Assembly: GCA_964016885.1 (NCBI GenBank)
Contig: OZ024742.1
Location: 329,220,001 to 329,284,000 of the forward strand
Length of the DNA: 64,000 bases
Reading direction: 5' to 3'
Source of the DNA: Eledone cirrhosa
Taxonomy: Eukaryota
Below the pieces are notes generated by a model. The model worked only from the letters and a program-made list of their open reading frames with translations, did no database searches and was not told where the DNA came from. Positions 5,598 to 61,254 of this stretch are shown here, piece after piece. Every line of letters starts with the position of its first letter. Position 1 is the stretch's first letter. Both the position numbers and the translations under genes were made by a program.

Positions 5598-6191
5598 CCA
5601 AACTTTAAAATAGAATCTACACACAGAAAAGACGCAATGTTTAGACAAATCACAGAGGCAATAAACATAAAAGAATTACAACCAAAATTAAATAGAAAAT
5701 ATGAGTGGAACAGCAATATCACAACTTACAATTAAGGACAAAATGAAAACACACACACACATAGAACAAACAACCAACCAGTAACATGTAAATAAACAAA
5801 TAAATAAATGAACATAAACACACACATACACCCGGATGTGGCGCATGCGCAGACTGAGCACACAACACACACACATAAACAAAATGGCGTAGGACAGAAC
5901 AAAGGAGAGGCACAAAAACAAAGAAAAAAATCCCCAGTCACTGAAGAGGTCACAGAATGTGTGACGAAAGACCTTTGACAATATATAAACAACTATCTGG
6001 TTGTGGAACCAACCAACCAACCATACATTTATAGATTTATTCCTAAATTTATAAATTTATTATAATAAATTGAAGTGAAAGCAACTGGTGCGTGTGTTTC
6101 TTATTGGCAACATGACCATTCCAAAGTATAACAATATCGGTTTCAACACACGATTTCAGATAAAGAATCTTGCTAAACAAATTCGGAAACG

Positions 6192-19172: not shown

Positions 19173-19710
19173 ATGTGTTTTGCAACAAGTCACTTTGTGG
19201 CTCAATGAAGAATTAATAAATTAAATAATCAGAGCTATATAGCATAAAACATGTCTATAGAATCACCAAATAAAATATATACCGTTTCCTCTCCCAATTA
19301 GCATAATTAACCATATAAAAAATCAATTAGACCAAGCTATAAGAATAAAGGCTCCTATGAAGAAATCTCCGACAAATAACCGAAAGCAGCCCCTTCGCGG
19401 CGGTTACGACGGATCATTTATCGAATATTTCGACAGCATGTATAAATCGACCAGATATACAGTCAACTAAACAGAATTAGGTGTAAAATAAACTAGAAGA
19501 AAAGTGAACATATTTAAATGTGTTCGATAAATGATCTGTCGCAACCGCTGCGAAGGGGCTGCTTACGGTTATTTGTCGGAGATTTCTTCATAGGAGCCTT
19601 TATTCTTATAACTTGGTCTAATTGATTTTTCATATGGTTAATTATGCTAATTGGGAGAGGAAACGGTATATATTTTATCTGCTGATTCTATAGACATGTT
19701 TTATGATAAA
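19173..19710. mobile_element. Asymmetric fold-back element in (TA)n, family J
   Basis: About 190-bp inverted arms (19238-19430/19516-19710) around an ~85-bp spacer, with (TA)n on both sides. Confidence 0.75.
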
Positions 19711-19730
19711 TATATATATATATATAATAT

Positions 19731-20895
19731 ATAATAAAATAAGTCCCTCATCAGTGATTTGCCGAAGATCATAGATATTTCATTGCATTAAAAATCATAT
19801 ATCTCACTTCGGTGCAATAATAACCAAAATAAGTTATTAGGACAATTAAAACGCGTAAAGCGAGTGAGACAGGAGAACAACAGAAAATATAGCATACCGT
19901 AGGGGAGAAACAAGCTTCAAAAATTATTCTGTTTAGCATAAGCTAGGTGAATATATGAGCGCTTAGAGAATAGTACCAACACGAACGAAGGCTATTGAGC
20001 AGAGAGAGAAAAAATAGCGTTCGTGAGTGCAGGATGAAATGAAGAGAAGAGGGAGAAAAACAGTGAGTGAGTGAAAGTGTGAGGAAGAGTTAACGGACAA
20101 GACAGAGGGGGAGAAACAGAGAGAATGGGGGAACAGTAAGAGAGAGAGAAAAAAACACAGAATCGCAGTGGTAAATATATGTATTAAAATATAGAGAAAA
20201 ATACTGCAGGTAGCACATGGTAACATGTAATAAAATAAGTCCCTCATGAGTGATTTGCCGAAGATCATAGATATTTCATTGCATTAAAAATCATATATCT
20301 CACTTCGGTGCAATAATAACCAAAATAAGTTATTAGGACAATTAAAACGCGTAAAGCGAGTGAGACATGTTACCATGTGCTACCTGCAGTATTTTTCTCT
20401 ATATTTTAATACATATATTTACCACTGCGATTCTGTGTTTTTTTCTCTCTCTCTTACTGTTCCCCCATTCTCTCTGTTTCTCCCCCTCTGTCTTGTCCGT
20501 TAACTCTTCCTCACACTTTCACTCACTCACTGTTTTTCTCCCTCTTCTCTTCATTTCATCCTGCACTCACGAACGCTATTTTTTCTCTCTCTGCTCAATA
20601 GCCTTCGTTCGTGTTGGTACTATTCTCTAAGCGCTCATATATTCACCTAGCTTATGCTAAACAGAATAATTTTTGAAGCTTGTTTCTCCCCTACGGTATG
20701 CTATATTTTCTGTTGTTCTCCTGTCTCACTCGCTTTACGCGTTTTAATTGTCCTAATAACTTATTTTGGTTATTATTGCACCGAAGTGAGATATATGATT
20801 TTTAATGCAATGAAATATCTATGATCTTCGGCAAATCACTGATGAGGGACTTATTTTATTACATGTTACCATGTGCTACCTGCAGTATTTTTCTC

Positions 20896-20900
<5 letters not shown>
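19731..20900. mobile_element. Family C: 496-bp monomer in tandem plus inversion, in (TA)n
   Basis: AAGTCCCTCA recurs at 19741 and 20237 (period 496). 19732-20367 is the reverse complement of the unit read at 20366-20900. A diverged single monomer lies at 60757-61254. Confidence 0.8.
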
Positions 20901-21189: not shown

Positions 21190-24100
21190 ATGTTTCGGAC
21201 AGTATTGGCCCAGGCCATATCTAACTTAATAACACCACCTGGCGAAGTCTTACAAATCAGTGTTTGGGCACCATGGCCCACTCGAGCAGAGAGTTATGGT
21301 GGCATATCCGGGTGCAGGAGGATTATCCGGGATTTCTTGAAGGAATTTATCCAAAGTCTTCTTGAACTTGATGTGGTCTGTCTCTTCTTTGATGTGTTTT
21401 GGTGTAATGTTAAAGAGTGCAGGGCCAATTGAGGTGAAATAATTGTGCCGTATTGTTGTTATAAGATGCGAGTGAGATTTTTGTTGTGGGTGGATAGCAC
21501 GGGGCCCAAGTCTTGGGTTTACATTAAAGGTGATGCCAACATCATTTGGGAAAAGCTGAGGGAATATTTTCCACATCATGCAGATAATGTAGCGCTCATG
21601 ACGACGTTGGAGAGAATAAAGGTTGAGCCTTTCTAATCGACTCCAATAGTCAAGGCCTGTCATGCCATCTATAATTTTTGTAATCGATCATCGGGGTGCT
21701 TCAACTTTCATGATACTTTGTTTCGTGTGGGGAGACCACAGTATTCAAGGTGGGGTCGGGCAAATGTGGAGAAGAGAAGGATAACAGTGTGGATATCTCT
21801 CGACTGGAAGGTTGTGAGAATCCAGGAACACATTCTGCGGGCCATGTTAACTTTGCTGTTTATATGAGTGGCCCAGCTTATGTTGTTGTCCACAATTACT
21901 CCCAGATCTCTGATTCTGTTGTATCCCACTAGAGTTTCACGCGAAGGAAGAGAGTATGGTAGTTTCAGGGCATCCTTTTTTCCAAATTGGATTAATTCGA
22001 ACTTATCCTCATTCAGCAACATATTCTTGTCTGCCCATTGGATAACAGACAGTAGGTCTGATTGAAGGCTAGTTCGGTCACCCAACTCATTGATGAGCAT
22101 TTGGAGCTTGGAATCATCTGCAAAGATTCTTGTGTTGCTGTGATTGATGATGTCAGTAATGTCATTAATGTAGATGATGAAAAGAAGTGAGCCCAACACA
22201 GTGCAGGGCTTCATTTTTCTCCTTCGACAACAACATGTTGGGGTCTGTCTGTCAGGAAACATTTGATCCAGTGTAGTAACTTTCCGGAGACACCAATATT
22301 GGATACTTTTGTCAGTAGAATCTTATGATCAACCCTGTCAAAGGCCTTGCTGAAATCAAGGTAAATGACATCAGTGTTAGAGCCCTCTCCCAAAGCTCTC
22401 AAAACATCGTCAAAGTGATGCAAGTGCTGCGTTAGGCAGTCCCTTCCATTACGGAACCCATGATGGTTGAAGTTCAGCAGGCCGTTCCTTTCAAGAAAGT
22501 GGGTTATTCCTGATCTCACCACCCTCTCAAATGCCTTGATAATATGAGAGGTGAGTAAGATCGAACGGTAGTTCGCTGTAAGGGACTTATTTGCCTTTTT
22601 GAAGATTGGGACAACGGACTGGGACAGAAAACTTTCAGGGATATAGCCGGTGTCCAGTGAGTTCCCCCCACAGATTAGCAAGAGGAAATGCAAGTTGGTG
22701 TCGACACACCTTCAGGACACAAGCAGGGAACCTGTCGGGGACTACTGCTGAATGGTGTTTAATTTCGTTTATTGCCGCTAATACATCAGCGGCGCCAAAC
22801 GTTATGTCCGATATAGTGTGTTGGGGTTAACATCATTGATACGCCCCAGATCGGCCATATCAGGATTGCTGAAAACAGAGCAGTATTGTTTCTGCAGTAT
22901 CTCGCCCATGGTTTTGGCCAGTAACCTTGTTTTTTAACAAATGAAAAGAATACTTTGGGGTTGAGTTTGATTTTCTCCATGGCCCACTCCTCTTCAGCTC
23001 TTCTCTGGTTATTGATGATGGTCTTCATGCATTATTAGAGGTTATTTTTTTTATACAAGCAGTGCGATAGCCGTCGAATGTGTGTGTTGCTGTTGGCAGT
23101 ATTTTAATGTGTTAATTTTTTTATTGTTCTTTTTATTTTTCGGATAATTGTTTTTCTGTTTTGGGGGATACTGCACTTAGTTTTGTTCACAGCTTTTGTT
23201 GGGGCGTGTTTTGTATATATATTTGGGACAGTGTCTACAAAGATCTGCCAAAATATGTTGATGTTGGTGGAAGTGTGTGAGTGTGTAAAAGACCAGTCAA
23301 CATGTGATAGTTCGTTCATAATTGCATCCCAGCTGGCATTGTAGAGATCCATGTTATCAAATGAGTGTGCTGGAAAGAGGTCCCTAGGATTAGCTTTCGG
23401 CTGGTGGAATCTCAGGTTACAAAGAATGTCATGGTCTGAGAGAAGGGATTTTTCCACTGTAATAGCATGTATAGTGTTAGTGCGGTTACTAAGCACTAGA
23501 TCCATAATGTTCTTCTGATGCCTTGTTGGTGCAACGACAAGTTGGGACAAGAAAAACTTAAGACTCGACTGCTTCTTTGTCAGTGCTTGAGTTTGGAGTG
23601 CCTGATTTCAAACTGTTTGTAGACCAATCGACACAGGTTATATTAAACTCTTTCATCAAATGTATGTTGCTAGATTTGCACTGTTTAATAAAGCATTTAA
23701 TGCTGTTGAGGCATTCTTTGAATCAGATTATGGGTGTTTGTGGTGGCCTATAGAACCCAACTAATATCAGGTCATTGGCTTTGTTGTCCACAGTGACTGA
23801 TTCACAGTAGCCATTGGAGAATGTTGTGTTACCATCTGCTGTAAAGGAATCATGCAGGAAAATGGGAGTTCCACCCTTCCTTCTGCCAACACGATCCGCG
23901 CGGATGGTTGTGAAATTCCTCACTCTTAATTCGTACTCCAAGTGGGAGTTGTCAAGGTGGGTCTCAGTAAGAATGAAGAAGGGGATGTGAAATGGATGGT
24001 TACCAACCCACGTGTGGGCAGCATGCTTTGGTGTTGGCTGGCAGTGTTAGTGCGTCTAGCACCGGGTAAATGGGTAAATATGCAGTCGCTATGTGTGCAT

Positions 24101-36515: not shown

Positions 36516-38850
36516 ACTTCAGCTGAAATTCAGTACGTCCTTGTCGGCTGCACGAGGTGCAAGTCACCCGGTTTGGATGGTCTGCCCTACGAACTTTTAG
36601 TAAGTATGCCAGACTGGTTCTCCGATCACCTGGAAGCGTCTACTGCAACTAACAGCAGAATAGGAGTATTCCCAGTTCTGTGAGCAGGGGCGTAGTGACG
36701 CTGATAAGGAAACAGGAGAAGAAGAGAGATACATTAGAACAATTCAGGCCCATATCTCTGCTCAACACAGCATTTAAGATTTTGGCAAAGGTGTTAGCAA
36801 AGAGGTCGGCGATTGTCGTCAAAAATTTGGTTGAGAAGGCGCAAACTTGCGCAATCCCAACCAAGTCCATACACGACAACATCCACCTCATGCGATACAT
36901 CATAGAGAGCGTAGGATGTAAATCTGACTTCGGTGGTGCTCTGATCAATTTAGATCAATCGAAAGCATTCGATAGGGTCGACCATTGGAATCTGGAGGCT
37001 GTTCCAAATGCAGCTGGCTTCGGCCCCGTCTTCAGAAGCTGGATCGCTGCAATGCACAGCGGCATCTGCTCGGTCGTCAAGGTTAATGGCCACCTCTCGG
37101 AACCGCTTCAGGGTTCCCGATCGGTCCTGCAAGGGTGCCCTCTCTCTTCCCTTCTGTATGTATTGACTCTCGGGCCATTTCTGCGGAAGCTGGAGCTGTG
37201 GCAGGGCATCCCGCTCGAACTGGGATGCGGAAAAACTGTGACGTCTTATGGGGACGACATCACCGTGATTGTGTCCGACACCTCGGAAATCGAGGTGGTC
37301 GGCACCTTATTTGACGAATATGAAAGGTTGACAGGAGCGAAACTTCACCAGGATAAGTCGGTAGGCTTGCAGCTCGGTGCTTGGAGAGGCAAGTCCATAC
37401 CGTCCAACAGCATCATTGGGCGCTGGACGGATGGACGGATAAATTTTCTCGGGATTTGGTTCGAATCAGACCTCCAGGTGGATAAGAATTAGGACGAGGT
37501 AACGAGCGGGGTAGCCAGTCTCACCTAGAAATGGGCTGCGAGGAAGCTAGGACTGAAAGGTCGCGTGGAGGTGCCGAATGCGTACATCGTGTCCGTCATC
37601 TACTACCGCCTGACCGTCATGTTTGCACCTGTCCACACCACAACAAGTTCGAACGGCTCCTGTTTAAATCCTTGTGTAGGGGAGAGGACCCGGTGGTGAG
37701 AGATTCCATCTGCTGCCAGCACCCTCTAGGCGGCTAATGATACGCAAACACGTGCTAATGCTGCGACATCTTCAAATATTCTGCCTGAACAGGTGTGGTC
37801 GTCGTTTATCAGACGGGCATTTCAGCAGATCGTCTGTTTGAATGAACTGCAGTCGTGGGTGAAGAAGGGAGCAACACTGGGTGACTGGCATCTGAAATGT
37901 TGCCAGGCACTCACTGCCCTCTACTAGACGGACAATGCGGTCAGTGGAACTCCCATTCTCGAGTTCTATAGAAGACAAGTGGTGGGAAACTGCGATGATG
38001 CACTCCGGGCGTGAACGGAGTTGAACTGACCAGTCTGTTACGGAAGACTTTCAAGCTAGGACGATGGATAACTTCCAGAAATCCCTAGCGTGGCAGTGCT
38101 ACCGAGGGCACTGCCGGATCGGGAGAAACTCTACAGGAACGGAATTGCTGTAAGACGGACCTGCCCGAGATGCGCCCAGAGCGACGACACCGTTCTACAC
38201 GCACTCATCCAACGTCCGTGTATTACTGACTTGTGGAGTTATGTCGAACAGCTTTTGTCGCGTGTAGAACGGATCCGGCCATCGACCGAGGCCAAAGTGA
38301 AGATGGACCCTCCGTCTTCCTTTGGCTAGGAAGGGTAGGCTATTTCCTCTGACTGATGGCAGTTGCGAAAGATATTAGTTGGTGGACCAGATTGAAAGGA
38401 CTGAAGGCAGACACTTTTCTCTTCGGCCAATCACTCATCAACTTCTTCAAGTTTCAGCTGGAAAGATATATTAGGGTGAAGAGAGAAGTGCTGCCACCCA
38501 GTACATTTGCTAAAAGGTGGATGAATGTGGCGAGAATGGCCTGTATCAGTGCGCCTACTCTGACAATGTGCCTATAGAATGGTTAATTTTAGGAGGAGAG
38601 GGGTGCCTTCCACGGGTGCCCTTGAAGCGTCGGCTGTTTCAGGATTGGTGGGCTACCTGCGTCACCCCTGTGTCGTCCAGTCTTTATTGTGAAATTTATT
38701 GTTATATTCATGCATGATTTATTTTATATTTTTTTATATTTTAATCGTTAAATTTATCTTGTGCTCTTTTACTCGAGGTTATTGTAAAGCCCCACTGTCC
38801 ATGTCTTTGTATTGTCCCCTACATGTCGGCCCTTGTGGCCAATACATGAG

Positions 38851-38885
<35 letters not shown>

Positions 38886-38895
38886 CATTATTATT
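36516..38895 (+). mobile_element. 5'-truncated L1/Tx1-type LINE, copy 1
   Basis: KSPGLDGLPYE, FRPISLLNTAFKILAK, NLDQSKAFDRVDH, QGCPLS, YGDD, CPRC zinc motif; (ATT)n tail 38851-38895. Stops and frameshifts. Confidence 0.9.
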
Positions 38896-38896
38896 G

Positions 38897-41180
38897 TTCT
38901 TTGAGTCTCAGTCATTGATGTTAGTTAACTGGAAAGTTTGTAGAAATGAATATCAAGGCACTACCTGCAGCCTCAGATATTCAGGACGTATCGGAGGTTT
39001 ATTGCTATTCCCAGCAAGCATGCCTTTTGAAGCGTTCCAAAAAGCGTGGCGGGGCCACTTTTCTTTAACATTCCCTGGAAACTTTTTGAGATAGTACTTA
39101 GTGCGCCTATGACAATCGGGACCACTTTCACTTCATGGCAGTTCCAAATGCTTTTTACCTCACACTTTAAGTCCTGGTATCGGTTAATTTTCTCCCTCTC
39201 CTTCTCTTGTACTCTCGTGTCGAATGGGACGGCCACATCCACAATCTGGCACGATATTTTTTCCTTGTCCAAAACCACCAGGTCAGGTCTATTGTGTTCT
39301 AATTTCTTGTCCGTCTGTATCCTAAAATCCCACAGCACATTCACCTGATCGTTTTCTATCACCGACTCTGGCTTATCCTCATACCACTTCTCAGAATGTG
39401 GTAAATTGTTTACTTTGCATAGGTGCCAGTGGATCACCCTGCCCATCACATCATGTCTCCAGCCCTTATAGTGAGTCTGGGCTAGGTGTTTACACTCGGA
39501 TACAATGTGAGCCACAGTCTCCTCACTCTCTCCACAGATCCTGTAAATATGGTGTTTCAACCACTTCGTTTTGAGGGCCTGCTCTTGCGCAGCCATTAGC
39601 ATTACTTCTGTAGCCTGTTTAAGGTCTCCTCTTTTCAACCAGTTCAATGTCTGTGGATGTCTGAATTCAGTTTTCTCAAAGAAGGTACTATGAAGGGATT
39701 GTTCATGAAGGCTGCTATTTCCCCTTGTTGTTATTTCCTCCTTGGACATCCCCTCGTCTATTGACCTCTCCTTCAGTACAATTCTGAGCATTGGCTCCTT
39801 ACTATCAGTCACGTATTTGTGTAGGTTGTTTTTCACCATCTGAACACGGTCCTCTATGCTGATAAGACCTCTTCCACCTTCAGATCTCCTTAAGTAGAGT
39901 CTATCGACATCACTCCTCTTGTGGAACATGTTGTAGATAGTCAATAGCTTCCTAGTCTCCCTATCCATTTCTTTTTGTTCAGCAACATTCCATCTCAGAA
40001 TTCCCGCAGTGTACCTAATAATAGACACAGCTCGGGAATTTACTGCACTTATTGCATTCCTACTGTTCAGATGTGACTTTAATACACTCCTTACTCTCCG
40101 AATATATTCAGATCTTATCAATTCCTTCATTATTTTGTTCTTGATGTAATTAGCCTCCATAACACCCACATACTTGTATCCTTCTTCAGTGTAAATTTCC
40201 TTCATCATCTCACCTGTTGGTACCTGAATTCCGTTGCTTCTGCTCAATTTACCCCTCTTAATCACAAGGACTCCACACTTACTAATACCAAATTGCATAC
40301 ATATATCATTGCTGAAAATACGGACAGTGTCAACAAGCACATCCAACTCCTTCTCACTCTTCCCGAAGAGCTTAAGATCGTCCATGAAGAGGAGGTGGTT
40401 GATGGTAAGCTCTCCCTTTCCCAACTTGTATCCTGCTCTCACTTTTCGCAGTATAATGTCAGGGGCATCAGGGCAAGTACAAACAACAGAGGGGACAGAC
40501 TATCTCCCTGGAAGATACCTCTCTTGATATTCACGCCTCCCAAGGATTCTCCAGCTGATGTTACCTCTGTTTTCCAGGACTTCATACTTTTGCCCAACAA
40601 CTGTCTGATGTTATCTGCCACCTTAAAGATCTCTAGGCTTTTGGTGATCTAAGAATGAGGCACCATGTCAAATGCCTTTTTGTAGTCTATCCATCCCATG
40701 GTAAGACCAGTGTGTCTCCCCTTGCAATTCCCCATTACCATTTTATCAATAAGTAACTGGTCCTTTGTACCACGGGACTTCTTTCAGCAGCCTTTCTGTT
40801 CGTCCGGTAACAAGTTGTTTGTGTGGAGGTGTTGGTAGATTTCCTCAGAGATAATGCTTGTCAACAGTTTCCACATTACGGACAGACATGTGGTAGGTCT
40901 ATAGTTGGTAACATCATTACCCTTGATTCGGTCTTTCATTACCAGAACTGTGGTACCTTTTGTCAACCACTCTGGTACCTCACCTGACATCAAGCAGTCA
41001 TTGAACATGGTCGTCAGTTTCGGGTGGAGGGATGTTATATTTTTAATCCGATACCCCTGCACACCATCTGGGCCTGGTGATTTCCAGTTGGTTATTATTT
41101 TGGCCTGCCCCTTAAGAGTTTCAACTGTGATACTCAAATCAGTTTGTTTGTGTGCCTGTTCACTAATCTCCTTTTCTACT
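38897..41180 (-). mobile_element. R4/Dong-like RLE retrotransposon, family 1 copy 1
   Basis: GIFQGDSLSPLLF, LLFMDDLKLF, RICGESEETVAHIVSEC, RHD, RPDLVVLD..IVDVAVP..EK..RY. 3' end abuts (TAA)n. Confidence 0.92.
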
Positions 41181-44100
41181 TTCTAATCTCCTTTCCCCAA
41201 GAAGCGAAGTCTCACTCTTTGGAAACCCTAAAGAGTGAGGAGATAGTCTTGGTGCCCTCCGAATGCGGGCAGAAAATTGTGAGTGTCAGAGTCCCCCAGG
41301 TCCCACCCGACATGCCCATACCTTGGCTGTCCGCGTCTGTCCTTGCTGGAATCGAGGACAGGACGACCATGCTGCAAGTAGAGAAAATAGGGAGAGAGAA
41401 CTGGTCAGGTATAGGCAATACATTCTTAAACAAACTGCCCAGGATATCATAGACATCGAGGAAGGACTCCATCTCCCTATAAGCATAGAAGGAAACGGCC
41501 AAAATGGTATCTCTGTGGGTCGAAGGGTCACCTCAGGGCCATTTGCTCGCAGAAGACAGCGAAGAAGAAGGCCCCTCTCGTTCCAATACGTGGTCCGCTG
41601 CTACCAAGAACAGGGTAGGCAACAAATACAGAAGTCCCTTCCACGGTGAGTAGGAGGGAAACGACCTTAGCACCCGTACCAAGGCCACGGACAACTAAAG
41701 CAGCAGCATCAGTGACGGCAAAACCAATCGCTACATTTGAAGTAGCTGCACCAGCAACACAATTGCCGGAGAGGGCTCCACTACCACCACCAACAGCCGT
41801 GGAGCACATACCCCTCCTAGACGCCACGGAATCCGACATGGTGTTTGAGGCGGGAGTGAAGTGGCAAACGGTCTGTCACAAAAAAACAAAAAACATAAAA
41901 TCCCTTCGATTCACACTCCAAAAGCGAAGGCACACAAAGAGGGGTAAAGGCAGCAAGGAAACTTGCAGCAACACCACCACCACCTAGTGGATAGGGGAGG
42001 AGGTGCAAGTGCCTCACCAACCTGCTCAGACGTTTTGAACTGTCTGACAGGTATCGACTGGATCACCCGAATGTGCCAATGTGGACATGGACAAACCGCA
42101 TCGGGTAATCCAGATCGTATCTCGATAGGGTATTCTGCAGAATAAGGCTAGTAGAAATTGTCCACAATTTAAATGAGTCGACGACACAGACCACACATTT
42201 GTGATCTGTGAGATCGATATAGACAGACTTCATAGACAAGGGCCCTGTTACTGGAAGCTGAACGCGTCTTTCCCGGCACACAAAGCCTACAGAGACCGGA
42301 TTAGCGTATTAGTTAAGCAGGCGTTGACGGGAGCGGTCGTCAACAACAGGTGGTGGTTCGCCCTGAAAAGGGCAATTAAAGTAGAGTCGATTAGGTTTAG
42401 CAAAGGAGTAGTGATAGAGGAAAATAGGGTAGAGGGAGAGCTAGTAAGAAAGCTAGAATAGGCGTTTAGGACAGGCATCGAAAACGACGTGCTTGCGGCG
42501 AGATGGGCACTCAACCAATTCTTCAACGCAAAACACGAAGGCTGCGTTGTCAGAGCTAGAGCGCGTGCTCTGAAACACGAGGGGACAAAATCCGTCCAAT
42601 GGGCCCGGGTGGCAGAGGTGCGACATGGCAACAAAGCCACAGTTCGGTCTTTGCCTGACCAAAACGGGTGCGTGTTGCTCGAACCCGAGCAGATGTGTGA
42701 AGCTTTTTAGCAGCACTTTGCTGAACTGTTCGGGAGCAGCGGCGAGCCGGATCGGGCATGGCCTTCAGTGTATACCTAGACGGACTGCCCCGGCTCTCCA
42801 CGACCGCAGCACAGTGTTGCGAAAACTAATAACAGCCGGTGAAATACGGGAAGCGATGGCTAACCACACGATGGGTAAATCGCCGGGTTTGGATGGTCTG
42901 CCCTACGAGCTTTATGCATTTATGCCAGACTTGTTCGGTGACCTCTTGGCAGACATCTACTGCAACTGGCAGCAGACTGGGAGCATTCCCAGTTTTGTGA
43001 GCTGGGGAGCAGTGGCGCTGCTGAGAAAATACCCGAACAAGGAGGATGTTATCGATAATTTCAAGCCCATAACCCTGCTAAACGCAGAGTTCAAGATTTT
43101 GGCCAAGGTGTTAGCAACGAGGTTGGCGCTTGTCGTCAAGGGTCTAATAGGAGAGGCGCAGACATGCGCTATTCCGGACAGATCCATACACGACAATCTC
43201 CACTTCTTGCGACACATCATAGAGAGGGTGGTTAAGGAATCTGGCACGGGTGGGGCCCTGATCAAAATGGATCAATTCAAAGCATTCAAGAGGGTCGACT
43301 ATCGGTACCTGGCGGCGGTCCTAGAGGCTGCCGGTTTCGGGCGCGTTTTCGGGGTTGGATCGCTGCGATGTACAGCAACATCTGGTCAGTTGTGAGGGTA
43401 AATGGCTACCTGTTTCAGCCTTTCAGCATCATGCGCTCGGTCCGACAGAGTTGTCCCCTCTCGCTCGTCCCTCTTGTACGTATTGGCTCTCGAGGCGTTA
43501 CTGCACAAAATGGGGGCGATGTAGGGTGTCCCACGCGAACTAGGATGCGGGAAATCCGAGTCGGCTTGCGCCGACGACGTCACCTTTATGGTGTCGAGCA
43601 CCAGACACGTCCAGATGCTCGGCACCGCACTCAATGTATACGTAGCGGTCACAGGAGCAAATATATACCAGGAAAAGTCGGTGGGCTTGCAGTGCGGCAC
43701 CTGGAAAGGGAAGTCCATGCCGTCCGACAGCATCGTGGGGCGTTGGACGGACAGAGCGGTTAAATTTCTCGGGGTCTGGTTCGGACCGGACCTCCAGATG
43801 GAGAAAAACTGGAACGAGGTGACGAGCAAGGTGGCCTCCCTCACCCAGAAATGGGCCGAGAGGGAGAAGTCTCTGAAAGGCCGGGTGGAGGTGCCGAATG
43901 CGTACATCGCATCCGTCCTCTGCTACCGCCTCACCGTCGTCCCTTGACACGGCCCAACTCTCACCAAAATGGAGCGCCTCCTCTTCCGCTTTTTGTGGAA
44001 GGGACGCGCTCCCATGGTCAGACGATCCATCTGCTGTCAACAGCCGTTGCGTGGAGGACTGGGAATGCCATGGCTGATGATGCGCAAACATGCGCTGAGG

Positions 44101-44879
44101 CTGCGACATCTCTGGTGCTTCCTAGACGGTGAACAGGTGTGGTTGCCGTTCGCCAGGAACATATTCCAACAGCTCGTCTCCTTGACGGAGCTGAAGTCCT
44201 GGGTCAGAAAAAGACCGAGCATTGCTGATTTGTGGACCTATGTCGAACAGTTGCTGTCGCGTGTAGGACTGATCCGCTTATTTACTGAGTCCATTGTGCA
44301 GATAGTCTCACCGTCTTCCTTCGAGGAGGAAGGGCAGGCGGTTTCCATCTGCCTGGTGGCCATGGCGAAAGAGATTGTGTGGTGGACAAGGATGAAAGGG
44401 TTAAAGACAGACACTTTCCTCTTCGGTGACTCCCTAATTAACTTTTTCAAGTTTCATTTGAAGAGGAAGATCAGGGTGGAGAGGCAAGTGCTGCCTTCTA
44501 GCAAGTTTGTTGAAAGGTGGGTGAATGTAGCGAGAATGTTGAGAGATGGAAAATTGAGAGAGGGCGCTTACCCTGGTGGTCAGGATGGCCGTGGTTATTT
44601 GTGTGGTTTTCGCCGAGTAACCCTCGGAGGTTTCCCCCCTATTTGTGAATTTTTCATTGTTTGAATTTTCATTTTTATTGTTTATATATATGTTTCTATG
44701 TCTTTTTTTCTTTTCTTATATAAATAATAAAAATATTTAAACGCACAAACCCACATCGTACAGTCCTGTACCGTCCTGTGCCGTTTGTAATGTTTTTCTT
44801 AATATCAGCCCTTGTGGCCAATAAAGAAATAATAATAATAATTATTATTATTACTATTATTATTATTATTATTATTATT
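41181..44879 (+). mobile_element. L1/Tx1-type LINE, copy 2 (ORF1 remnant, partial APE, RT)
   Basis: ORF1 knuckle (W)YLCGSKGHLRAIC at ~41500-41546, APE end GPCYWKLNAS, RT motifs, same 3' end CCCTTGTGGCCAATA plus (AAT/ATT)n. Lacks the zinc-finger segment (deletion near 44220). Confidence 0.9.
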
Positions 44880-48668: not shown

Positions 48669-48736
<68 letters not shown>

Positions 48737-51503
48737 GTTATTACTCTTTGAGTCACAGTCATTGATGTTAGTTAACTGGAAAGTTTGTTGAGATGAATAT
48801 CAAGCCACTACCTGCAGCCTCAGATATTCAGGACGTATCGGAGGGTTCTTTCTGTTCCCAGCAAGCATGCCTTTTGAACCGTTCCAAAAAGCGGGAAGGG
48901 GCCAATTTCTTTAACCATCCCTGGAAACTTTTTGAGATAGTCCCTAGTGCGCCTATGACAATCGGGACCACTTTCACTTCATAGCAGTTCCAAATCCTTT
49001 TTACCTCCCACTTTAAGTCCTGGTATCGGTTAATTTTCTCCCTCTCCTTCTCTTGCACTGTCGTTTCGAATGGGCAGTCCAAATCCACAATCAGGCACGA
49101 TTTTTTTTCTTTCTCCAAAACCACCAGGTCAGGTCTATTGTGTTCCAGTTTCTTGTCCGTCTGTATTCTAAAATGCCACAGCAACTTCACCTGATCGTTT
49201 TCTATCACCGCCTCTGGCTTATGCTTATACCACTTCTCAGAATGTGGTAAATTGTTTACTTTGCATAGGTGCCAGTGGATCACCCTGCCCATCACATCAT
49301 GTCTCCAGCCCTTATAGTGAGTCTGGGCTAGGTGTTTACACTCGGATACAATGTGAGCCACAGTCTCCTCACTCTCTCCACAGATCCTGCACAGTGGGCT
49401 AGCCTCCTTGTAAATGTGGTGTTTCAACCACTTCGTTTTGAGGGCTTGCTCCTGCGCAGCCATTAACATTCCTTCTGTAGCCTTTTTAAGGTCTCCTCTT
49501 TTCAACCAGTTCCATGTCTGTGGATCTCTAAATTCAGTTTTCTCAAAGAAGGTACTATGAAGGGATTTTTCATGAAGGCTGCTCTTTCTCCTTGATGTTA
49601 TTTCCTCCTTGCACATCCACTGGCCTATTGTCCCCTCCTTCAGTACAGCTCTGAGCATTGGTTCCTTACTATCAGTCACGTATTTGTGTAGGTTGTTTTT
49701 CTCCATCTGAACATAGTCCTCTATGCTGATAAGACATCTTCCACCCTCATATCTCCTTAAGTAGAGTCTAACGACATCACTCCTCTTGTGGAACCTATTG
49801 TAGATAGTCAATAGCTTCCTAGTCTTCCTATCCATTTATTTTTGTTCAGCAACATTCCATCTCAGAATTCCCGCACTGTACCTAATAATAGACACAGCTC
49901 GGGAATTTACTGCACTTATTGCATTCCTACTGTTCAGATGTGACTTTAATACTCTCCTTACTCTCCGAATATATTCAGATCTTATCAATTCCTTCATTCT
50001 TTTGTTCTTGATGTCATCAGCCTCCAGAACTTCATACTTTCCCAGGACTTCATACCTTTGCCCAACAGCTGCCTTATGTTATCTGCCACCTTGAAGATCT
50101 CCAGGCTTTTGGTGATCCAAGAATGAGGCACCATGTCAAATACCTTTTTATAGTCTATCCATCCCATGGCAAGACCAGTTTGTCTCCTCTTGCAATTCCT
50201 CATTACCATCTTATCAATAAGTAACTGGTCCTTTGTACCACGGGACTTCTTTCGGCATCCTTTCTGTTCGTCCGGTAACAAGTTGTTTGTGTGGAGGTGA
50301 TGGTAGATTTCCTCAGACATAATGCTTGTCAACAGTTTCCACATTACGGACAAACATGTGATAGGTCTATAGTTGGTAACATCATTACCCTTGATTCGGT
50401 ATTTCATTATCAGAACTGTGGTTCCTTTTTTCAACCACTCTAGTACCTCACCTGACATCAAGCAGTCATTGAACATGGTTGTCAGTTTCGGGTGGAGGGA
50501 TGTTATGTTTTTAATCCAATACCCCTGCACACCATCTGGGCCAGGTGATTTCCAGTTAGTTAGTTTTTTGGCCTGCCCCTTACGAGTTTCAACTGTGATA
50601 CTCAAATCAGTTTGTTGGCGTGCCTGTTCACTGATCTCCTTCTGTACTGTCTCAATCCACACTGCCTGGTCATTATGTTTGACATCCTGCTCCCATATTC
50701 CTCTCCAGAATGTTTTAGTTTGTTCCGCATCAGGGATCAAGTCGTTGCCTCTTTCTTACCCTTCAAGCTGTCCAAACAGCATCTTCTGGTTGTTGTCGAA
50801 CATGCGGTTCTGTCTATACTGGCTGACTCTGTTCTCGTATCGCCTGATTTTTGCACTTTTTGCTACAATGCGTTGCTTCAGTTCCTCTATGATAATATTT
50901 AGCTTTTTCCTCCTAGTTTTGTACTTTATTTCCAGTCTATTTTTAGTGTCTATGTTTTTTAATGTCCCATTCAGTAGGGACTCAAGCTTTCCAATGTCAT
51001 TTCTCATTTCCCTGATTTGAACACTCAGTCGTTTCTTCCACCAAGGCTCTGCTCTTTCTTGTCTGTTGTTTCCTCTCGCTTTTATACCAAATAGTTTCCT
51101 CACCGTATTTTCTGTTGCTTTGAGGATATTGTTGCACTGGTGAAGGCTCCTCGCCTCAAGGTATGGGATGACTTTGTTTACCTTAGCTGTTGTTTCTTTT
51201 AACTTTTTCCTGTCTACAAATCTTAGGTTCATAGGTCTCCCACTATCATTGTTCAATTCCTCTACCTCTAAGTTTAGGTTATCTACCAAATCTTGTCCTA
51301 GCCCGTCAGCATTGATCTCCTCAGTGGCCGTATCTCTGTTCCAGTTATTATTTATCTCAGCATTCAGATCATTGTCTGTTTCGGGTGGTTCCACCGTTCC
51401 TCGACCTCTTCACCTTAATTTCCCACTGGCTCGTTTGCCTGGCATACTCCACCCTCCATCTCGAAGCTAATCTCTCTGCCCAGTTCCTCCAGTTCCAGCT
51501 CGC
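48737..51503 (-). mobile_element. R4/Dong-like family 1 copy 2 (longest; RT core deleted)
   Basis: N-terminal PWWKKRL region, RT0-4, CCHC CRICGESEETVAHIVSEC, RLE. About 410 bp containing the FMDD motif is missing near 50025. (TAA)n on both sides. Confidence 0.92.
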
Positions 51504-51523
51504 TTATTATTATTATTATTATT

Positions 51524-53917
51524 TGCATGTATCTTGCTTTATGTTTATACGAGTTATGACCAAGTCACAACCAGTGACCTCAAGAGACAACAAGGTCCGC
51601 CATGTTCAAGAAAGAACATACATATTCACACATGCATCCTTAGTGTTTAGACTTGTGATGTACTTATATTGACAGGATCTTCCTTAGTATATGGGCAGTT
51701 CCCATTAGTACTATCTGTTGTATTTCTCCTATACGCGGGTTTCCTGGGATTTGCGATAAGTAGTCGTTAGACCCCTTAGGTATCATTCCAAGAGCGCCTA
51801 CAACCACTGGTATTGTTTTAGTTCTCAATTTCCACATTTTTCCAATTTCTATCTCCAGGTCCTTATACTTGCTCAATTTTTCAAATGTTTTTATAGATAC
51901 ATTCTTGTCTATTGGAGCAGACATATCAATTAGCAGGCATACCCTCCTTTGAAAGTCCTTCAATATTATATCAGGTCTATTTGCATCTATTTTTCGGTCT
52001 GTTTGGATGCTAAAGTTCCACAAGATTGAGATGTGATCTTTTTCAAGTATGGGAGGTGATTGATGCTCCCACCAATTCTTTTGATGGGGCAGGTCAAAAT
52101 GCTTACACATTATCCAATGTATGTATTGTGCAGCTCTGTCATGCCTGTTTAGGTATTCGGTTGGAGCTATAGGACTGCACATTGAAATGATATGGTCAAT
52201 GGTCTCTGGTTGTTTTTTGCATACACGGCATAATGGGCTGCACCCATTTTTTATTATGTTGGCTTGGTAATTTTTTGTTGGCAGACACTGATCTTGTGCC
52301 GATATAATCAGTCCTTCAGTCTCCGATTTCAGTCCAGAGGATGCCAACCACTGATGGGTTAAAGTTTTGTCAACATCAGGATTGTTAGCTCGCTCTGGGT
52401 ATTTTCCATACAGAGGCTTTTCTTGCCATTTCTTAGCCAGTTTCTGTAGCAGTTCTTTCTTTGCAGTTACTTTTACCTGCTTTGCTTTTTCTGTGTTTTC
52501 CATTTCAGCAGTAAATGGGACTTCTGAAATTTGTAGTCCATTACTGTATCTTTGTGCATCTTTTGTAATGGAATATGATCTTTTGGTGCTTTCGTGTTTC
52601 AAAACGAGTTTGATCATCCAATCATGTGATTCCCTTAGATATGTGGATAATACAATTGTTGCAGTTTTCAACGCAATGTCTAACTGGATTAACCCACGTC
52701 CTCCTTCTTTCCTAGGGAGATATATTCTATCTATATCTGCCTTAGGGTGATGCATTCTGTGCATGGTTAAGAATTTTCGGATTTTTGTATCGAGCCTACG
52801 GATCTCTGTGCTTGACCGGTTGATGACATTGTAACTGTAGGTTACTACTGGTATGGCAAGCGTGTTTATGGCATCGATCCTATTCCTTGCATTCAATTCC
52901 GTTCTTAAGATTGCTCTGACTCTGCGGTAACATTCTTTCCTTATCCTTTCCCTCATTGTCGAGTGCTTGATTCCGTCTCCTTCACAAACACCTAGATATG
53001 TGTAAGTTTTTTCTTGATCAAGCTCTCTTATCACGTTCCCCCGATCAAGATTAATGTCTGAACTCTTCAGCAGCTTTCCTCTGGTGAACGTTGCTTTGGC
53101 GCATTTATCCAGTCCAAACTCCATTTTAATGTCATGACTGAACTGCTTCACAGTGGATAATAGCCCTTGCAATTGTTCATCATTTTTTGCAAATAGTTTC
53201 AGGTCATCCATGTAGAACAGGTGATTAATGGTTTTGTCATAGACTCTATATCCATGTTTTGTTTCATTGAGCATTTTACTTAATGGTATAAGTGCGATGC
53301 AGAATAAAAGCGGTGATAAAGAGTCACCCTGAAAAATTCCACAATTAATGTTAACTTCTCCAGCTTCCAGTGATTTTGTTTCACTATTCAAAAGGAGTGT
53401 CGTTCTCCATGTCCTCATACTGAATGACAAAAACCTCCTGACAACGGGGGATATTTTGAAAATCTCTAAACATTTTTCAATCCAACTGTGTGGCAAACTA
53501 TCGAATGCTTTTTTATAATCTATCCAAGCAATCGATAGCATTTTGTGTCTATTATGACAATCTTCCAGTATCATTTTGTTAACCAGAAGCTGATCCTTAC
53601 AGCCATATGAGCCTCGTTTACACCCTTTCTGCTCAATGGGAAATAGGTCATTTGTTATCAGGTGGTCATATGTGTATTCAGTTAGGACTGATGTTAAAAT
53701 TTTATACATTGTGGTCAAGCAGGTTATCGGTCTGTAATTTTTGGGATTGTTTGTCTCATCATTCTTCGGTAGCAGGAATGTAATGCCGTTAACTAGCCAT
53801 GATGGTATCTTTTCTGGCTCCTTAACTATTTCATTGTAAAGTTGGGCTAACAGCTCCTGAGACTCTGTGAAGGCATTTATCCAAAAGTTTTGTATTTTGT
53901 CTTTTCCTGGGGATTTC

Positions 53918-53918
<1 letters not shown>
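51524..53918 (-). mobile_element. R4/Dong-like family 2, 5'-truncated, young
   Basis: Flanked by (TAA)n at 51504-51523 and 53919-53980. 3' UTR at 51524-51663 differs from that of family 1. Confidence 0.92.
51664..53916 (-). CDS. RT + CCHC + PD-(D/E)xK endonuclease frame (5'-truncated)
   Basis: The 684-aa ORF extends upstream without a stop to KSPGKDKIQNFW at 53916. Motifs: [68 protein letters not shown]. Confidence 0.85.
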   Translation of the reverse strand, partial: KSPGKDKIQNFWINAFTESQELLAQLYNEIVKEPEKIPSWLVNGITFLLPKNDETNNPKNYRPITCLTTMYKILTSVLTEYTYDHLITNDLFPIEQKGCKRGSYGCKDQLLVNKMILEDCHNRHKMLSIAWIDYKKAFDSLPHSWIEKCLEIFKISPVVRRFLSFSMRTWRTTLLLNSETKSLEAGEVNINCGIFQGDSLSPLLFCIALIPLSKMLNETKHGYRVYDKTINHLFYMDDLKLFAKNDEQLQGLLSTVKQFSHDIKMEFGLDKCAKATFTRGKLLKSSDINLDRGNVIRELDQEKTYTYLGVCEGDGIKHSTMRERIRKECYRRVRAILRTELNARNRIDAINTLAIPVVTYSYNVINRSSTEIRRLDTKIRKFLTMHRMHHPKADIDRIYLPRKEGGRGLIQLDIALKTATIVLSTYLRESHDWMIKLVLKHESTKRSYSITKDAQRYSNGLQISEVPFTAEMENTEKAKQVKVTAKKELLQKLAKKWQEKPLYGKYPERANNPDVDKTLTHQWLASSGLKSETEGLIISAQDQCLPTKNYQANIIKNGCSPLCRVCKKQPETIDHIISMCSPIAPTEYLNRHDRAAQYIHWIMCKHFDLPHQKNWWEHQSPPILEKDHISILWNFSIQTDRKIDANRPDIILKDFQRRVCLLIDMSAPIDKNVSIKTFEKLSKYKDLEIEIGKMWKLRTKTIPVVVGALGMIPKGSNDYLSQIPGNPRIGEIQQIVLMGTAHILRKILSI

Positions 53919-53980
<62 letters not shown>

Positions 53981-53981
<1 letters not shown>

Positions 53982-55489
53982 TTTCTTTGAGTCTCAGTGA
54001 TTGATGTTATTTAACTGGAAAGTTTGTTGAAATGAATATCAAGCCGCTACCTGCAGCCTCATATATTCAGGACGTATCGGAGGTTTCTTGCTGTTCCCAG
54101 CAAGCATGCCTTTTGAAGTGTTCCAAAAAGCGGGGCTGGACACATTTTCTTTAAACATCCTTGATAACTCTTTGGGATAGAAACTAGTGTAGCTATGACA
54201 ATCGGGACGACTCTGACTTCATGGCAGTTACAAATCCTTTTTACCTCCCACTTTAAGTCTAGGTATCGGTGAATTTTCTCCCTCTCCTTTTCTTGCACTC
54301 TTGTGTCAAATGAGCAGGCTACATCTACAATCAGGCACGATCTTTTTTCCTTGTCCAAAACCACCAGGTCAGGCCTATTGTGTTCCAGTTTCTTGTCCGT
54401 CTGTATCCTAAAATCCCATAGCACCTTCACATGATCGTTTTTCTATCATCGCCTCTGGCTTATGCTCATACCACTTCTCAGAATGTGGTAAATTGTTTAC
54501 TTTGGGTAGGTGCCAGTGGATCACCCTGCCCATCACATCATGTCTCCAGCCTTTATAGTGAGTGTGGGCTAGGTGTTTACACTCGGATACGATGTGAGCC
54601 GCAGTCTCCCCTCTCTCTCCACAGATCCGACTCATTGGGCTAGCCTCCTCTTGTAAATATGGTGTTTCACTCACTTCGTTCTGAGGGCTTGCTCTTGCGT
54701 AGCCATTAGCATTCCTTCTGTAGCCTTATTAAGGTCTCATCTTTTTAACCAGTTCCATGTCTGCGGATCTCTAAATTCAGTTTTCTTAATGAAGGTACTA
54801 TGAAGGGATTTTTCATGAAGCTTGCTCTTCCTCGTTGTTGCTATTTCCTCCTTGGACATCTTCTGGTCTTTTGTCCTCTACTTCAGTACAATTTTGAGCA
54901 TTGACTCTCTACTGTCAGTAACGTATTTGTGCAGGTTGTTTTTCTCCATCTGAATACAGTCCTCTATGCTGATAAGACCTCTTCCACCATCAGATCTCTT
55001 TAAGTAGAGTCTATCGACATCACCCCTCTTGTGGAACATGTTGTAGATAGTCAATAGCTTCCTAGTCTTCCTATCCATTTTTTTTGTTCAGCAACATTCC
55101 ATTTCAGAATTCCCGCACTGTACCTAATAATAGACACAGCTCGGGAATTCACTCCACTTACGACATTGCTACTATTTAGATGTGATTTTAGTACGCTCCT
55201 TACTCTTCGAATGTACTCAGATCTTATCGATGCCTTCATTTTCTTGTTATTGGTGACATTTAACTCCAGAACATTGCTTCTGCTCAATTTACCCCTCTTC
55301 ATCACTAGGACTCCACACTTATTAATACCAAATTCCATACATATATCATTGCTGAAAATACGGACAGTGTCAACAAGTACATCCATCTCCTCATTCTTCC
55401 CAACGAGTTTAAAATCGTCCACGAAGAGGAGGTGGTTGATGGTAAGCTCTACTTTTCCCAACTTGTATCCTGCTCTCACTTTTCGCAGT
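53981..55489 (-). mobile_element. R4/Dong-like family 1 copy 3 (5'-truncated)
   Basis: LLFVDDFKL, RICGERGETAAHIVSEC, RPDLVVLD. Same 3' UTR as copies 1 and 2; (TAA)n on both sides. Confidence 0.9.
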
Positions 55490-57045: not shown

Positions 57046-57590
57046 ATACTTTGAGAGGGTCATGTTGCCAATAAGAAACACACGCACCAGTTACTTTCAC
57101 TCCAATTTATTATAAATTAAATTTATAAATTTAAGAATTAATAAATTTCCGGTTGGTTGGTTGGTTCCACAACCGGACGGTTGTTCATATATAGTCAAAG
57201 TTCTTTCGTCACACATTATGTGACCTCTTAGGTGACTGGGGATTTTTCTGTTTGTTTTGTGCCTCTCCTTTGTTCTGTCCTACGCCATTTGGTTTTTGGG
57301 TAAGATGGCGTAGGACAGAACAAAGGAGAGGCACAACACATAGAGAAAAATCCCCAGTCACTGAAGAGGTTACATAATGTGTGACGAAAGAACTTTGACA
57401 ATATATGAACAACCGTCCGGTTGTGGAACCAACCAACCGGAAATTTAAAAATTTAATTTATAATAAATTGGAGTGAATCAAACGGTGCGTGTGTTTCTTA
57501 TTCGCAACATGACCCTCCCAAAGTATAACAATATCGGTTTCAAAACATGTTTTCAGATAAAAATCTTGCTAAACAAATTCAGAAACGAAA
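57041..57590. mobile_element. Fold-back copy of the family A pLTR in (TA)n
   Basis: About 250-bp arms (57041-57289/57304-57531). Right arm matches 5883-6193 and ends at the same GAAACGAAA|TATA. Confidence 0.85.
57357..57399 (+). ncRNA. Minimal type I hammerhead, family A copy 2
   Basis: GTCA-CTGAAGA-G-GTTACA(TAATG)TGTGAC-GAAA-GAAC-TT-TGAC. The mirror copy at 57194-57236 (-) has a mutated core. Confidence 0.75.
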
Positions 57591-58601: not shown

Positions 58602-59924
58602 AGAACAACAGAGAGTAAAAAACGAGAGAGAGAGGAGAAAGAGAAAGGAGAGCGAGAGCGAAAACACTAACTCATATCTTGTTGAGTTATCTTAAACATT
58701 TGAGAGGAAATGTTAATAATCATGAATTTAAGATACATATATAATATGAGAAATTTAACCATTGTTTAAATATGATTAAATGTTTAGTTAATCAGTTAAA
58801 ATATTGAGATCAATACATTAAAAATTGATATCTATATATTAAGAAATCTATATATTATTATTAAGATTATATTATTAAAAATATATATATTATATAACAC
58901 ACATACACACGCAAAAATACATACATATAAATATATATACACACGTATAAAAATATATATACATATCTAACTACATATATAATATATACACATAAAATAT
59001 AAAGGATTTTTTAATTTAAGATATAGGAATCTTATAAAATCAGAGAAAATCATTTCAATGTAAAATCAAAGCAGCATGAAGGAAAATTACGTTATTTAGT
59101 TATATAAATGTTACAATTGTTAAGATATTAAAGGAAATTTTATGTAATACACACTTTATGTTATTAAACAATTTTTTTTTATATAAGTTTTATAAAATTA
59201 CCTGTTATGTAGTTAAGACTGTTATTAAGTGCAATCGAATTGTATGCATATACACATATATATACATACACAATTCCCACATATACATACATATATGTGT
59301 GTACCCACACAAATAGGTAGATATGCATCACATATATATATACATACAGATAACATACACACATAAAACATATGTACATGTATATCAATACACACATACA
59401 TATATATATACACACATATATAGAGAGAAAAGTATATATAAATACAGTACATAGTATAATTGAAGTACATAAAATACAAAATAATTATATTACGATTTGG
59501 AAATATAATTATAAGCAATATAACTTTAAAACAATATAACTTTAAAAATATTATAGAATATTTCAAGTTATAATTTCAAAATAATAATATGCTTAATAAA
59601 TTTAGTATGAAAATGTTCTACGTATATTTAACTTAATTTTATAACCATAAGAGAAAGAATAAGAAACTTTCAAAAGATAAACTTTCGAAAATAGGAGAAA
59701 CTATCAAAAAATATTCTCCCCTTTTAAGAGCTTTCAGTATATTTATCTAGAAGAGTTTATTATATTTACTTATATTTAGGAAGAACAGATTTTTTTTACT
59801 TGAGTGTATAAGCAGTCAAAAAATGAAGGAATCTAATGATTTATCGATAGGTTCAATATATTAATAGAATTAATTAATTAATTATATTACATTTTAAATT
59901 TATATTTAAACGTTGAGTTCAATC

Positions 59925-60590
59925 TATGTCTACAGCAACTAAAATATTGTTCCTTAGGTTCAGGGAATTTTTGGTCTTTAATATAAAGAATATTTCCTCT
60001 ATACAAAGATCACAATTTTCCGAAGAGGAGTTAAAAGGAGTGGCTTTGAAATAATATTCCAAATCAACGAATATTCAAGGCTCTTTAGTTTGAGGTCCCA
60101 TAATAAGCTAGATGGAGAAGTTGAAGATTTTTTGTTTGGATCTGTAAAATAATTTTCATGATTATTGAAGCGGGATTTAAACTCTGTGGAAGTGGATCCC
60201 ACATAATTAAATGAATTTAAATTAGTTTTTACATTATTATATTTTTAGCTAAGCAATTGTTATTTAACGGACAGTTAGATTTATTTCTACAGTTACATTT
60301 ATCAAATTGGATATTACTTGGGTTATTATTCGTATTTTGGTTAGGTTTTAAATTTCTTTTATTAATTTTATTAATATTTTGCGCTAAGTTTTTGGTGGAA
60401 GAATAAGTTAATTTTATAGTATGTCCATTAAAGATTGAATAATATCTATGTGTTCTAGGGAAGCATTTTTCAAGAGCTTTAAAAAATAGTTTAGCAATAG
60501 GTGTTTTAATATTTAATGAGAAAGGAGGAGCGAACCATAATATGTTCCTAGTTCTATTTCTTTTCCGGCTTTCGGAATTAATGTAAGTTT
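59925..60590 (-). mobile_element. Penelope-like (Neptune-type) RT-thumb/Zn-linker/GIY-YIG fragment
   Basis: Minus strand reads RNILWFAPPFS.., CNCRNKSNCPLNNNCL, YVGSTSTEFKSRFNNH, LWDLK..WNII, CDLC..E. Frameshifted. Confidence 0.85.
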
Positions 60591-60756: not shown

Positions 60757-60762
<6 letters not shown>

Positions 60763-61249
60763 TAAACTGCGATTCTGTTTTTCTCTCTCTCTCTCTTACT
60801 GCTCCCTCGTTCTCTCTGTTTCTCTTACTTTCTTTCGTCCCCTCTGTCATGTCAGTTAACACTTTCTCTCTACTGACCTCTTCCTCGCACTTCCACTCAC
60901 TCACTGTTTCTCCCCTTCTCACTTCTCCCCGTTCGCGACGAAAACGATTTTCCTTCTTTCTTACATCGGATTCATCTCGAAAGGTCTATTTCTTACTCGC
61001 TCATATATTCACCCAGCTTATACTGATAGAATAACTATGTAGCTTTCCCCTGTGTTGTTTACTTGTCTCACTCGCTTTACGCGTTTTAATTGTCCTAATA
61101 ACTTATTTTAGTTATTATTGCACCAACGTGAGGTATATGATTTTTAATGCAATGAAATACCAATGACCGTTGGCAAATCACTGATGAGGGACTCATTTTA
61201 TAACATGTTATCCATGTACAACCAGCAGTATTCTTCTCCCCATATTTTT

Positions 61250-61254
<5 letters not shown>
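60757..61254 (+). mobile_element. Family C single diverged monomer in (TA)n
   Basis: Collinear with 20419-20900 plus 20366-20418; (TA)n on both sides. Confidence 0.8.

Follow-up and report, generated by a model that had tools for sequence, protein, structure and literature searches.

A candidate hammerhead ribozyme with S-G-C block order and a split stem II in a high-copy retrozyme-like repeat of Eledone cirrhosa

Results

Repeat Units and Hammerhead Words at the Locus

The window, that is, the whole 64,000-nt stretch of Eledone cirrhosa DNA analyzed here, contains two arms of a non-coding repeat joined head-to-head and a solo unit from a second subfamily, all of which carry a motif composed of hammerhead words:

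19725..20367, minus strand: minus arm of 1.3 units, facing the plus arm head-to-head, with motifs at 19743-19843 and 20239-20339
20365..20900, plus strand: the insertion's plus arm, which spans 1.08 units of the repeat (496 nt per unit) and enters (TA)n at its 3' end
20750..20850, plus strand: the whole rewired hammerhead motif
60758..61254, plus strand: solo unit of the second subfamily between (TA)n runs, with its motif at 61092-61192 and a predicted cut after 61137

Each hammerhead core word named in the preliminary description was found at the position given for it: TGATTT (20796-20801) with its partner AAATCA (20833-20838), A20795, GAAA (20812-20815) and CTGATGA (20839-20845). The paired words GATAT (20790-20794) with ATATC (20815-20819) and CCGAAG (20781-20786) with CTTCGG (20826-20831) were likewise located. 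The compensatory changes described against 61085-61200 were genuine on re-comparison, CCGAAG/CTTCGG being replaced by CCAACG/CGTTGG (two compensatory pairs) and GATAT/ATATC by GGTAT/ATACC (one further pair). The number of diverged copies, given earlier as two only, had to be revised: the window alone holds four, at 20750-20850 (+), 61092-61192 (+), 19743-19843 (-) and 20239-20339 (-), and pattern searches found thousands in the genome. The minus-strand copy at 19743-19843 is intact, and in that at 20239-20339 G5 is changed to C. A search against 4,227 Rfam families (E<=1) gave no hammerhead match at the motif; the matches returned were below threshold and belonged mostly to microRNA families on microsatellites.

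Analysis of the element beyond the window showed units of 445-762 nt, non-coding and pyrimidine-rich, that end in (TA)n and occur in arrays or solo. Each non-coding tandem unit bears one hammerhead-type motif, and the copies are dispersed. A (TA)n run was present within 150 nt on the 3' side in 191 of 244 copies and on the 5' side in 68 of 242, and the 3' ends of copies cluster 60-135 nt beyond the predicted cut. Both window arms (1.08 and 1.3 units) exceed one unit, and thus a circular or multimeric template would have been needed; their head-to-head layout is known for Penelope-like elements, as set out in the available text of Craig et al. (2021). Folding of the whole unit gave no rod-like structure, and none of the other elements examined carried the 3' tail. 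Judged from its DNA, the element is in anatomy a non-LTR retrozyme.

Several other elements are present in the window. A MITE-like inverted-repeat element at 19216-19732, with 210-nt arms that are 91% complementary, adjoins the retrozyme insertion. Non-LTR retrotransposon copies at 51664-53916 (-), 38851-41188, 48698-51409 and 53918-55489 end beside (ATT)n runs and encode a domain of reverse transcriptase (Pfam RVT_1 in a 750-aa frame, E 8e-29), together with what we take to be a restriction-like endonuclease motif, while broken LINE-type copies of two other kinds lie at 36551-37860 and 42574-44664 (+) and at 21250-23607 (-). A second repeat family carries hammerhead cores of ordinary order (CUGAAGA, hairpin stem II, GAAA) at 5935-5975 (+) and 57355-57400 (+), and at another locus (L119) a similar ordinary-order core follows a Penelope-like endonuclease ORF at a distance of about 200 nt. 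A broken Penelope-like 3' fragment occupies 59900-60590 (-), with a 120-aa piece that has no Pfam match and presumably comprises a linker and a GIY-YIG-like stretch; a possible ordinary hammerhead core lies further 3' of it, at about 58387 (-). The Penelope-like fragments beside copies of the repeat (59900-60590 in the window, and at loci L119 and L299) were considered as autonomous partners and proved to be separate insertions.

Copies in the Genome and Conservation of the Core

The number of motifs was estimated by pattern searches of the 3.0-Gb genome, each paired with a reversed control. The first two patterns gave 5,408 matches (0 in the control) and 16,162 matches (16 in the control), and a pattern for another subfamily gave 491 (0 in the control). 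A pattern for distant families added 1,622 (98 in the control), a figure that includes chance matches and some ordinary hammerheads. In total, the motif is present at about 17,000 places. The copies gathered from individual loci, all of them from this one genome, comprised 138 distinct sequences, in 105 of which 9 or more of the 11 pairs of stems I and III could form; this set was reduced to 69 representatives and, after truncated and redundant ones were removed by eye, to an alignment of 44.

The core was conserved more strongly than its surroundings, the property by which the preliminary description had proposed to judge the motif: among 14,532 copies found with a pattern free of core bases, 13,112 had all 10 core bases intact. 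On a tree of the 44 copies, which were found by core patterns, the core columns required 0 parsimony steps, U7 required 7 and several loop columns 5-11. The 56 metagenome matches and one viral match to the same core pattern were rejected as chance, given that the 56 of these 57 that were scored reached at most 13 of 21 pairs, against at least 19 of 21 in 78 of 104 genome copies. As to expression, four of six runs, with contigs of unspecified kind, gave coverage of the repeat only. Near-identical low-depth contigs under two other organism codes were considered as a second species and provided no evidence of one.

Helices of the Motif and Their Covariation

Hammerheads are assembled from three blocks, S (the cut site with strands of stems III and I), G (GAAA with a stem II and a stem III strand) and C (CUGANGA with strands of stems I and II), as defined in the available sections of Eckert et al. 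(2023; PMC10085705). In the window copy the blocks run in the order S, G, C and are combined with four further strands or helices, named Pa to Pd:

20750..20753, plus strand: Pa 5' strand, pairing with 20847-20850; two of four pairs vary on both sides
20754..20775, plus strand: Pb hairpin, second arm of the putative four-way junction; six of eight pairs vary on both sides; also present in the minimum free energy (MFE) fold
20776..20780, plus strand: Pc 5' strand, the detached stem II 5' strand, pairing with 20806-20810; three of five pairs vary on both sides
20781..20786, plus strand: Pd 5' strand, pairing with 20826-20831; five of six pairs vary on both sides
20787..20789, plus strand: predicted kink-turn, non-bulged strand (U3n, G2n, A1n); A1n in 107/124 copies, 2n being G in 87/124 and U in 36/124
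20790..20801, plus strand: block S, with the stem III 3' strand, U16.1 (20794), H17 (A20795) and the stem I 5' strand (20796-20801)
20802..20805, plus strand: stem I-stem II linker containing a conserved AA; four-base form in 107/124 copies
20806..20819, plus strand: block G, with the stem II 3' strand (20806-20810), U11.1 (20811), GAAA (20812-20815) and the stem III 5' strand
20820..20825, plus strand: predicted kink-turn, bulged strand, with a 3-nt bulge, G1b (20823) and A2b (20824); G1b in 118/124 copies, A2b in 120/124
20826..20850, plus strand: Pd 3' strand, stem I 3' strand (20833-20838), CUGAUGA (20839-20845), base 10.1 (20846) and Pa 3' strand

Sequence comparison revealed that six helices (I, III, Pc as stem II, Pd, Pa and Pb) are kept by compensatory change and that the hammerhead core CUGANGA, GAAA and UH is retained. 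In the 44-copy alignment, 90.6% of the 1,581 cells over 36 pairs were paired, compared to 75.7% in shuffles (0 of 500 shuffles reached the observed value) and 34-44% in slid controls, and 26 of the 36 pairs vary on both sides. The proportion of paired cells was 94% in Pa, 91.5% in Pb, 84.8% in Pc, 93.6% in Pd, 84% in stem III (including a sixth pair that mostly fails) and 98.5% in stem I, where the values of stems I and III are inflated because copies had been preselected on those two stems. On the tree, 37 coincident changes fell on paired columns, compared to 10.4+-2.7 when columns were randomly re-paired (0 of 10,000). Pa and stem III had just 2 coincident changes each; the support for Pa amounts to essentially one deep two-pair change and makes it the weakest helix on the tree. 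Stems I and III, for which the copies were preselected, flank the predicted cut site and covary. Pseudoknot-free folding of the first window copy recovered Pa, Pb, Pd and III, with a z of -1.5 that is not significant. The earlier suggestion of a pseudoknotted hammerhead outside types I-III is thus backed by covariation in both the 44-copy alignment and the tree. Its lack of fit to types I-III was also borne out, the order being S-G-C and not that of a circular nested three-way junction, and Rfam returning no match. Both A columns of the linker at 20802-20805 had 0 parsimony steps, and AA recurs at this place in published Naiad ends (read by eye); the pair possibly makes a tertiary contact.

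A Split Stem II and a Putative Four-Way Junction

Stem II had been described as lacking any normal form. The canonical form is indeed missing: a stem II directly after CUGAUGA was tried and had 43% of cells paired, less than the shuffles. The helix itself is not absent, as TTGCA at 20776-20780 pairs with TGCAA at 20806-20810, just before U-GAAA. The helix II that closes the core at A9/G12 is therefore present and split, consisting of Pc and one 10.1:11.1 pair. The strand that follows CUGAUGA-G pairs with 20750-20753 to form Pa, and the Pb hairpin sits between Pa and Pc with 0 or 1 unpaired base.

The bases at 10.1 and 11.1 co-vary across families (G.U, A-U, U-A, C.A and A.C), and the score of this single pair was matched by 1 of 500 shuffles in 23 copies. 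This co-variation indicates that block C retains one stem II pair, which together with Pc, Pb and Pa would form a four-way junction. The junction register slides by one pair and no single register suits all families: of 99 copies, 78 fit register A, 48 register B and 86 either one, and in 13 neither was fully paired. Most copies lack the usual G10.1-C11.1 pair, and the A.C or C.A found in two families may slow the predicted cut. In the proposed fold, Pc would stack on the core like a stem II, since its linkers match those of stem II in type SGC.

A Kink-Turn Signature between Stem III and Pd

In the loop between stem III and Pd, a 3-nt bulge is succeeded by G and A, which face A and G on the other strand, and the loop matches the standard kink-turn consensus as given in the available part of PMC5061560. 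Among the 124 intact copies the closing pair had C in 122 and G in 119; 78/124 fitted in full, including a C-G closing pair, and 100/124 had the two G.A positions when either G or U was accepted at 2n. The U2n form has a precedent in the A-U variant of Kt-23 (PMC2790904, in the part available). In the published crystal structure the tip of stem III and the tip of the I-II helix lie far apart, and the span of the short link between them is left unexplained in the sections available (PMC10085705). Through the predicted kink-turn, Pd would leave the tip of stem III and double back to reach those of stems I and II, and hence a single strand could fold alone.

The Predicted Cut and the Ends of Copies

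Cleavage is predicted 3' of A20795, in agreement with the preliminary description; this site is structurally analogous to that of known hammerheads. In 123 intact copies the cleavage triplet was AUA in 75, AUC in 27, GUU in 9 and GUA in 5, and position 17 was G in 2. The 5' ends of 246 copies showed no clear peak at the predicted cut. Foreign joins of copy 5' ends numbered 39 at this position, compared to control counts of 21 at -5 and 69 at +4; of the 39, 20 were fetched and 19 of those were true foreign joins, while the control joins at -5 and +4 were mostly at a native palindrome or TA microhomology. Among 40 inverted junctions inspected by eye, 10 had a longer arm that starts at the predicted cut. 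A single native palindrome of 8 nt, located just to the 3' side of the predicted cut, was the site of about 14 of 40 inverted junctions, which suggests fold-back priming there.

The Same Wiring, as Read by Eye, in Published Naiad Records

Naiads are stated to be without a detectable hammerhead in the available text of Craig et al. (2021; bioRxiv 10.1101/2021.04.23.441226). The accessible part of the Naiad supplement (PMC8557442) was read by eye around one core word, among 60 of its 62 matches, a reading that misses motifs with other bases at position 7 or split by a line end. Matches 26-44 (19 in all) lie in Naiad records, and 7 of them, consensus ends, show the same wiring with all six helices: three that adjoin the headers Naiad_Aacu and Naiad_Anas and share the same four-base linker, Naiad_Ovul and the record before it, which have a kink-turn-type loop, and matches 31 and 37. 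Of the others, 34 and 35 look like plain type CSG, 8 show nothing, and 26 and 42 are ambiguous. In the autonomous Naiad records, the fold is located near the 3' end. As read by eye, the form of matches 34 and 35, both Naiad consensus ends, is textbook type CSG, known so far, in the sources available, from a few soil metagenome sequences.

In the E. cirrhosa genome, three Naiad-based patterns gave 0 matches and no Naiad-type ORF was found, which does not imply absence; twenty 10-kb stretches and the other loci examined likewise contained no Naiad-type motifs upstream of copies.

Discussion

The results argue for an active-type hammerhead with S-G-C block order, whose stem II 5' strand is detached upstream and which would cut a multimeric transcript to unit length; on the sequence evidence we put the probability of this reading at roughly 0.8. 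The preliminary description missed that the block order is one published as SGC, that stem II is split, and that the host of the motif is a high-copy retrozyme. By analogy with animal retrozymes, cleavage after A20795 would release unit-length RNAs, which a host ligase would close to circles; a Penelope-type enzyme, most likely of a Naiad because published Naiad ends bear the same fold, would then copy the circles into (TA)n sites. Since no Naiad ORF was found in this genome, we can only infer the mobilizing enzyme here.

A broader proposal appears probable to us, with less assurance than the above: that the motif is a further natural wiring outside the six permutations held to be possible, with four strands in place of three blocks, a kink-turn and a four-way junction; that, together with type CSG, it is the overlooked ribozyme of Naiads across invertebrates; and that it powers a superfamily of retrozymes with about 17,000 copies in this genome.

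The same strands and the same cut would also be obtained in a domain-swapped dimer, in which blocks S and G are brought in on the III-Pd hairpin of one unit while block C and the Pc strand come from the following unit. Covariation is blind to the difference between pairing within and between units, the element forms tandem arrays, amphibian retrozyme hammerheads act as dimers (PMC7229834, in the part available), and a wide gap separates the tip of stem III from that of the I-II helix in the crystal, as noted above (PMC10085705). The kink-turn signature, however, would supply the bend that a monomer requires; published SGC constructs with a single motif cleave, according to the available sections of the same paper; solo units are common, for instance at 60758-61254 in the window; and in the autonomous Naiad records the fold sits close to the 3' end (read by eye). 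A dimer seems to us unlikely.

Rather more doubtful is a hammerhead-derived fold that signals binding or priming to the reverse transcriptase, with self-cutting lost or aided only by protein. Such a role would be consistent with the non-canonical 10.1:11.1 pair and with the position of the fold, which would adjoin the priming sites, as copy 3' ends lie 60-135 nt beyond the predicted cut; an anole Penelope-like element, moreover, had a hammerhead whose cleavage required protein and was dispensable for insertion in vitro, as given in the available part of PMC11167929. It does not account for catalytic bases that are held while neighboring columns drift, nor for position 17, which varies among A, C and U and is rarely G, as a working hammerhead needs. 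That the words arose by chance in a young repeat, with covariation from shared descent only, can be set aside as negligible: the copies are related to one another, and independent events are few in some helices, but the tree-aware test, the slid controls and the chance-match control all oppose it, as does the same wiring in the unrelated sequence of published Naiads (read by eye).

The first report of non-circular RNA permutations dates from 2023 and was drawn from environmental sequence, on the assumption that the three blocks are indivisible. If the hammerhead described here cuts, such ribozymes would be placed in animal chromosomes at high copy and the assumption of indivisible blocks would be broken, while the kink-turn would be a suggested answer to how stem III reaches the I-II helix. 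The description of Naiads as being without hammerheads would be overturned, and standard descriptors and Rfam would be seen to overlook a whole class of retrozymes.

Comparison with Known Systems

Naiads resemble the element in their tandem and head-to-head inverted insertions and in their microsatellite targets (Craig et al., 2021, in the part available), and differ in being protein-coding, whereas the element here encodes no protein. With animal non-LTR retrozymes it has in common non-coding tandem units, a GC content under about 45%, thousands of dispersed copies and a proposed Penelope-like origin (PMC7229834 and bioRxiv 10.64898/2026.07.22.740005, in the parts available), a likeness drawn from DNA sequence. 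Those retrozymes are defined in the same texts by a type I hammerhead, in contrast to the S-G-C order of the present motif. Its units of 445-762 nt are longer than the 170-400 nt of the retrozymes described in 2020 (PMC7229834, available part) and fall inside the range of 51-972 bp of the 2026 preprint (bioRxiv 10.64898/2026.07.22.740005, available part).

In the literature covered, from which subscription papers are largely missing, type SGC is treated by Eckert et al. (2023) alone, and no mention was found of stem II being split, of a host animal or of Naiads; the available portions of PMC10162972 and PMC13725137 describe no such form. As reported in the accessible sections of Eckert et al. 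(PMC10085705), the non-circular orders SGC and CSG exist and cleave in vitro, the SGC RNAs (HRIMA-1 and a variant) come from metatranscriptomes, none of them from the genome of a known organism, block C is assumed to be uninterruptible, and the published descriptor requires G10.1-C11.1. The window motif and the type-SGC sequences are unrelated. The features that they share, as far as type SGC is set out there, are the block order S-G-C, the full core, a short linker between stem I and stem II (typically 3 nt in type SGC, 4 nt here) and a helix that connects these two stems on their other sides, the analogue of which is Pd.

The differences from type SGC, to the same extent, concern block C and its surroundings. 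Stem II directly follows CUGAUGA in type SGC, whereas here just one of its pairs does and the rest lies upstream of block S, so that the uninterrupted block C with G10.1-C11.1 is not found in the motif. One strand of the I-II helix is also upstream of block S, joined through the putative four-way junction with its two extra helices, and, unlike type SGC, the motif has a kink-turn signature and no fixed G10.1-C11.1. With type CSG, in the form described in the available text, it shares two links, one running from the stem II 5' strand through the I-II helix to stem III and the other from S to G. The CUGAUGA block comes first in type CSG and last here, and therefore the three inter-block links are closed and the remaining RNA leaves the motif through Pa at stem II. 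On its sequence, the motif is closest to types SGC and CSG and departs from them in its interrupted block C.
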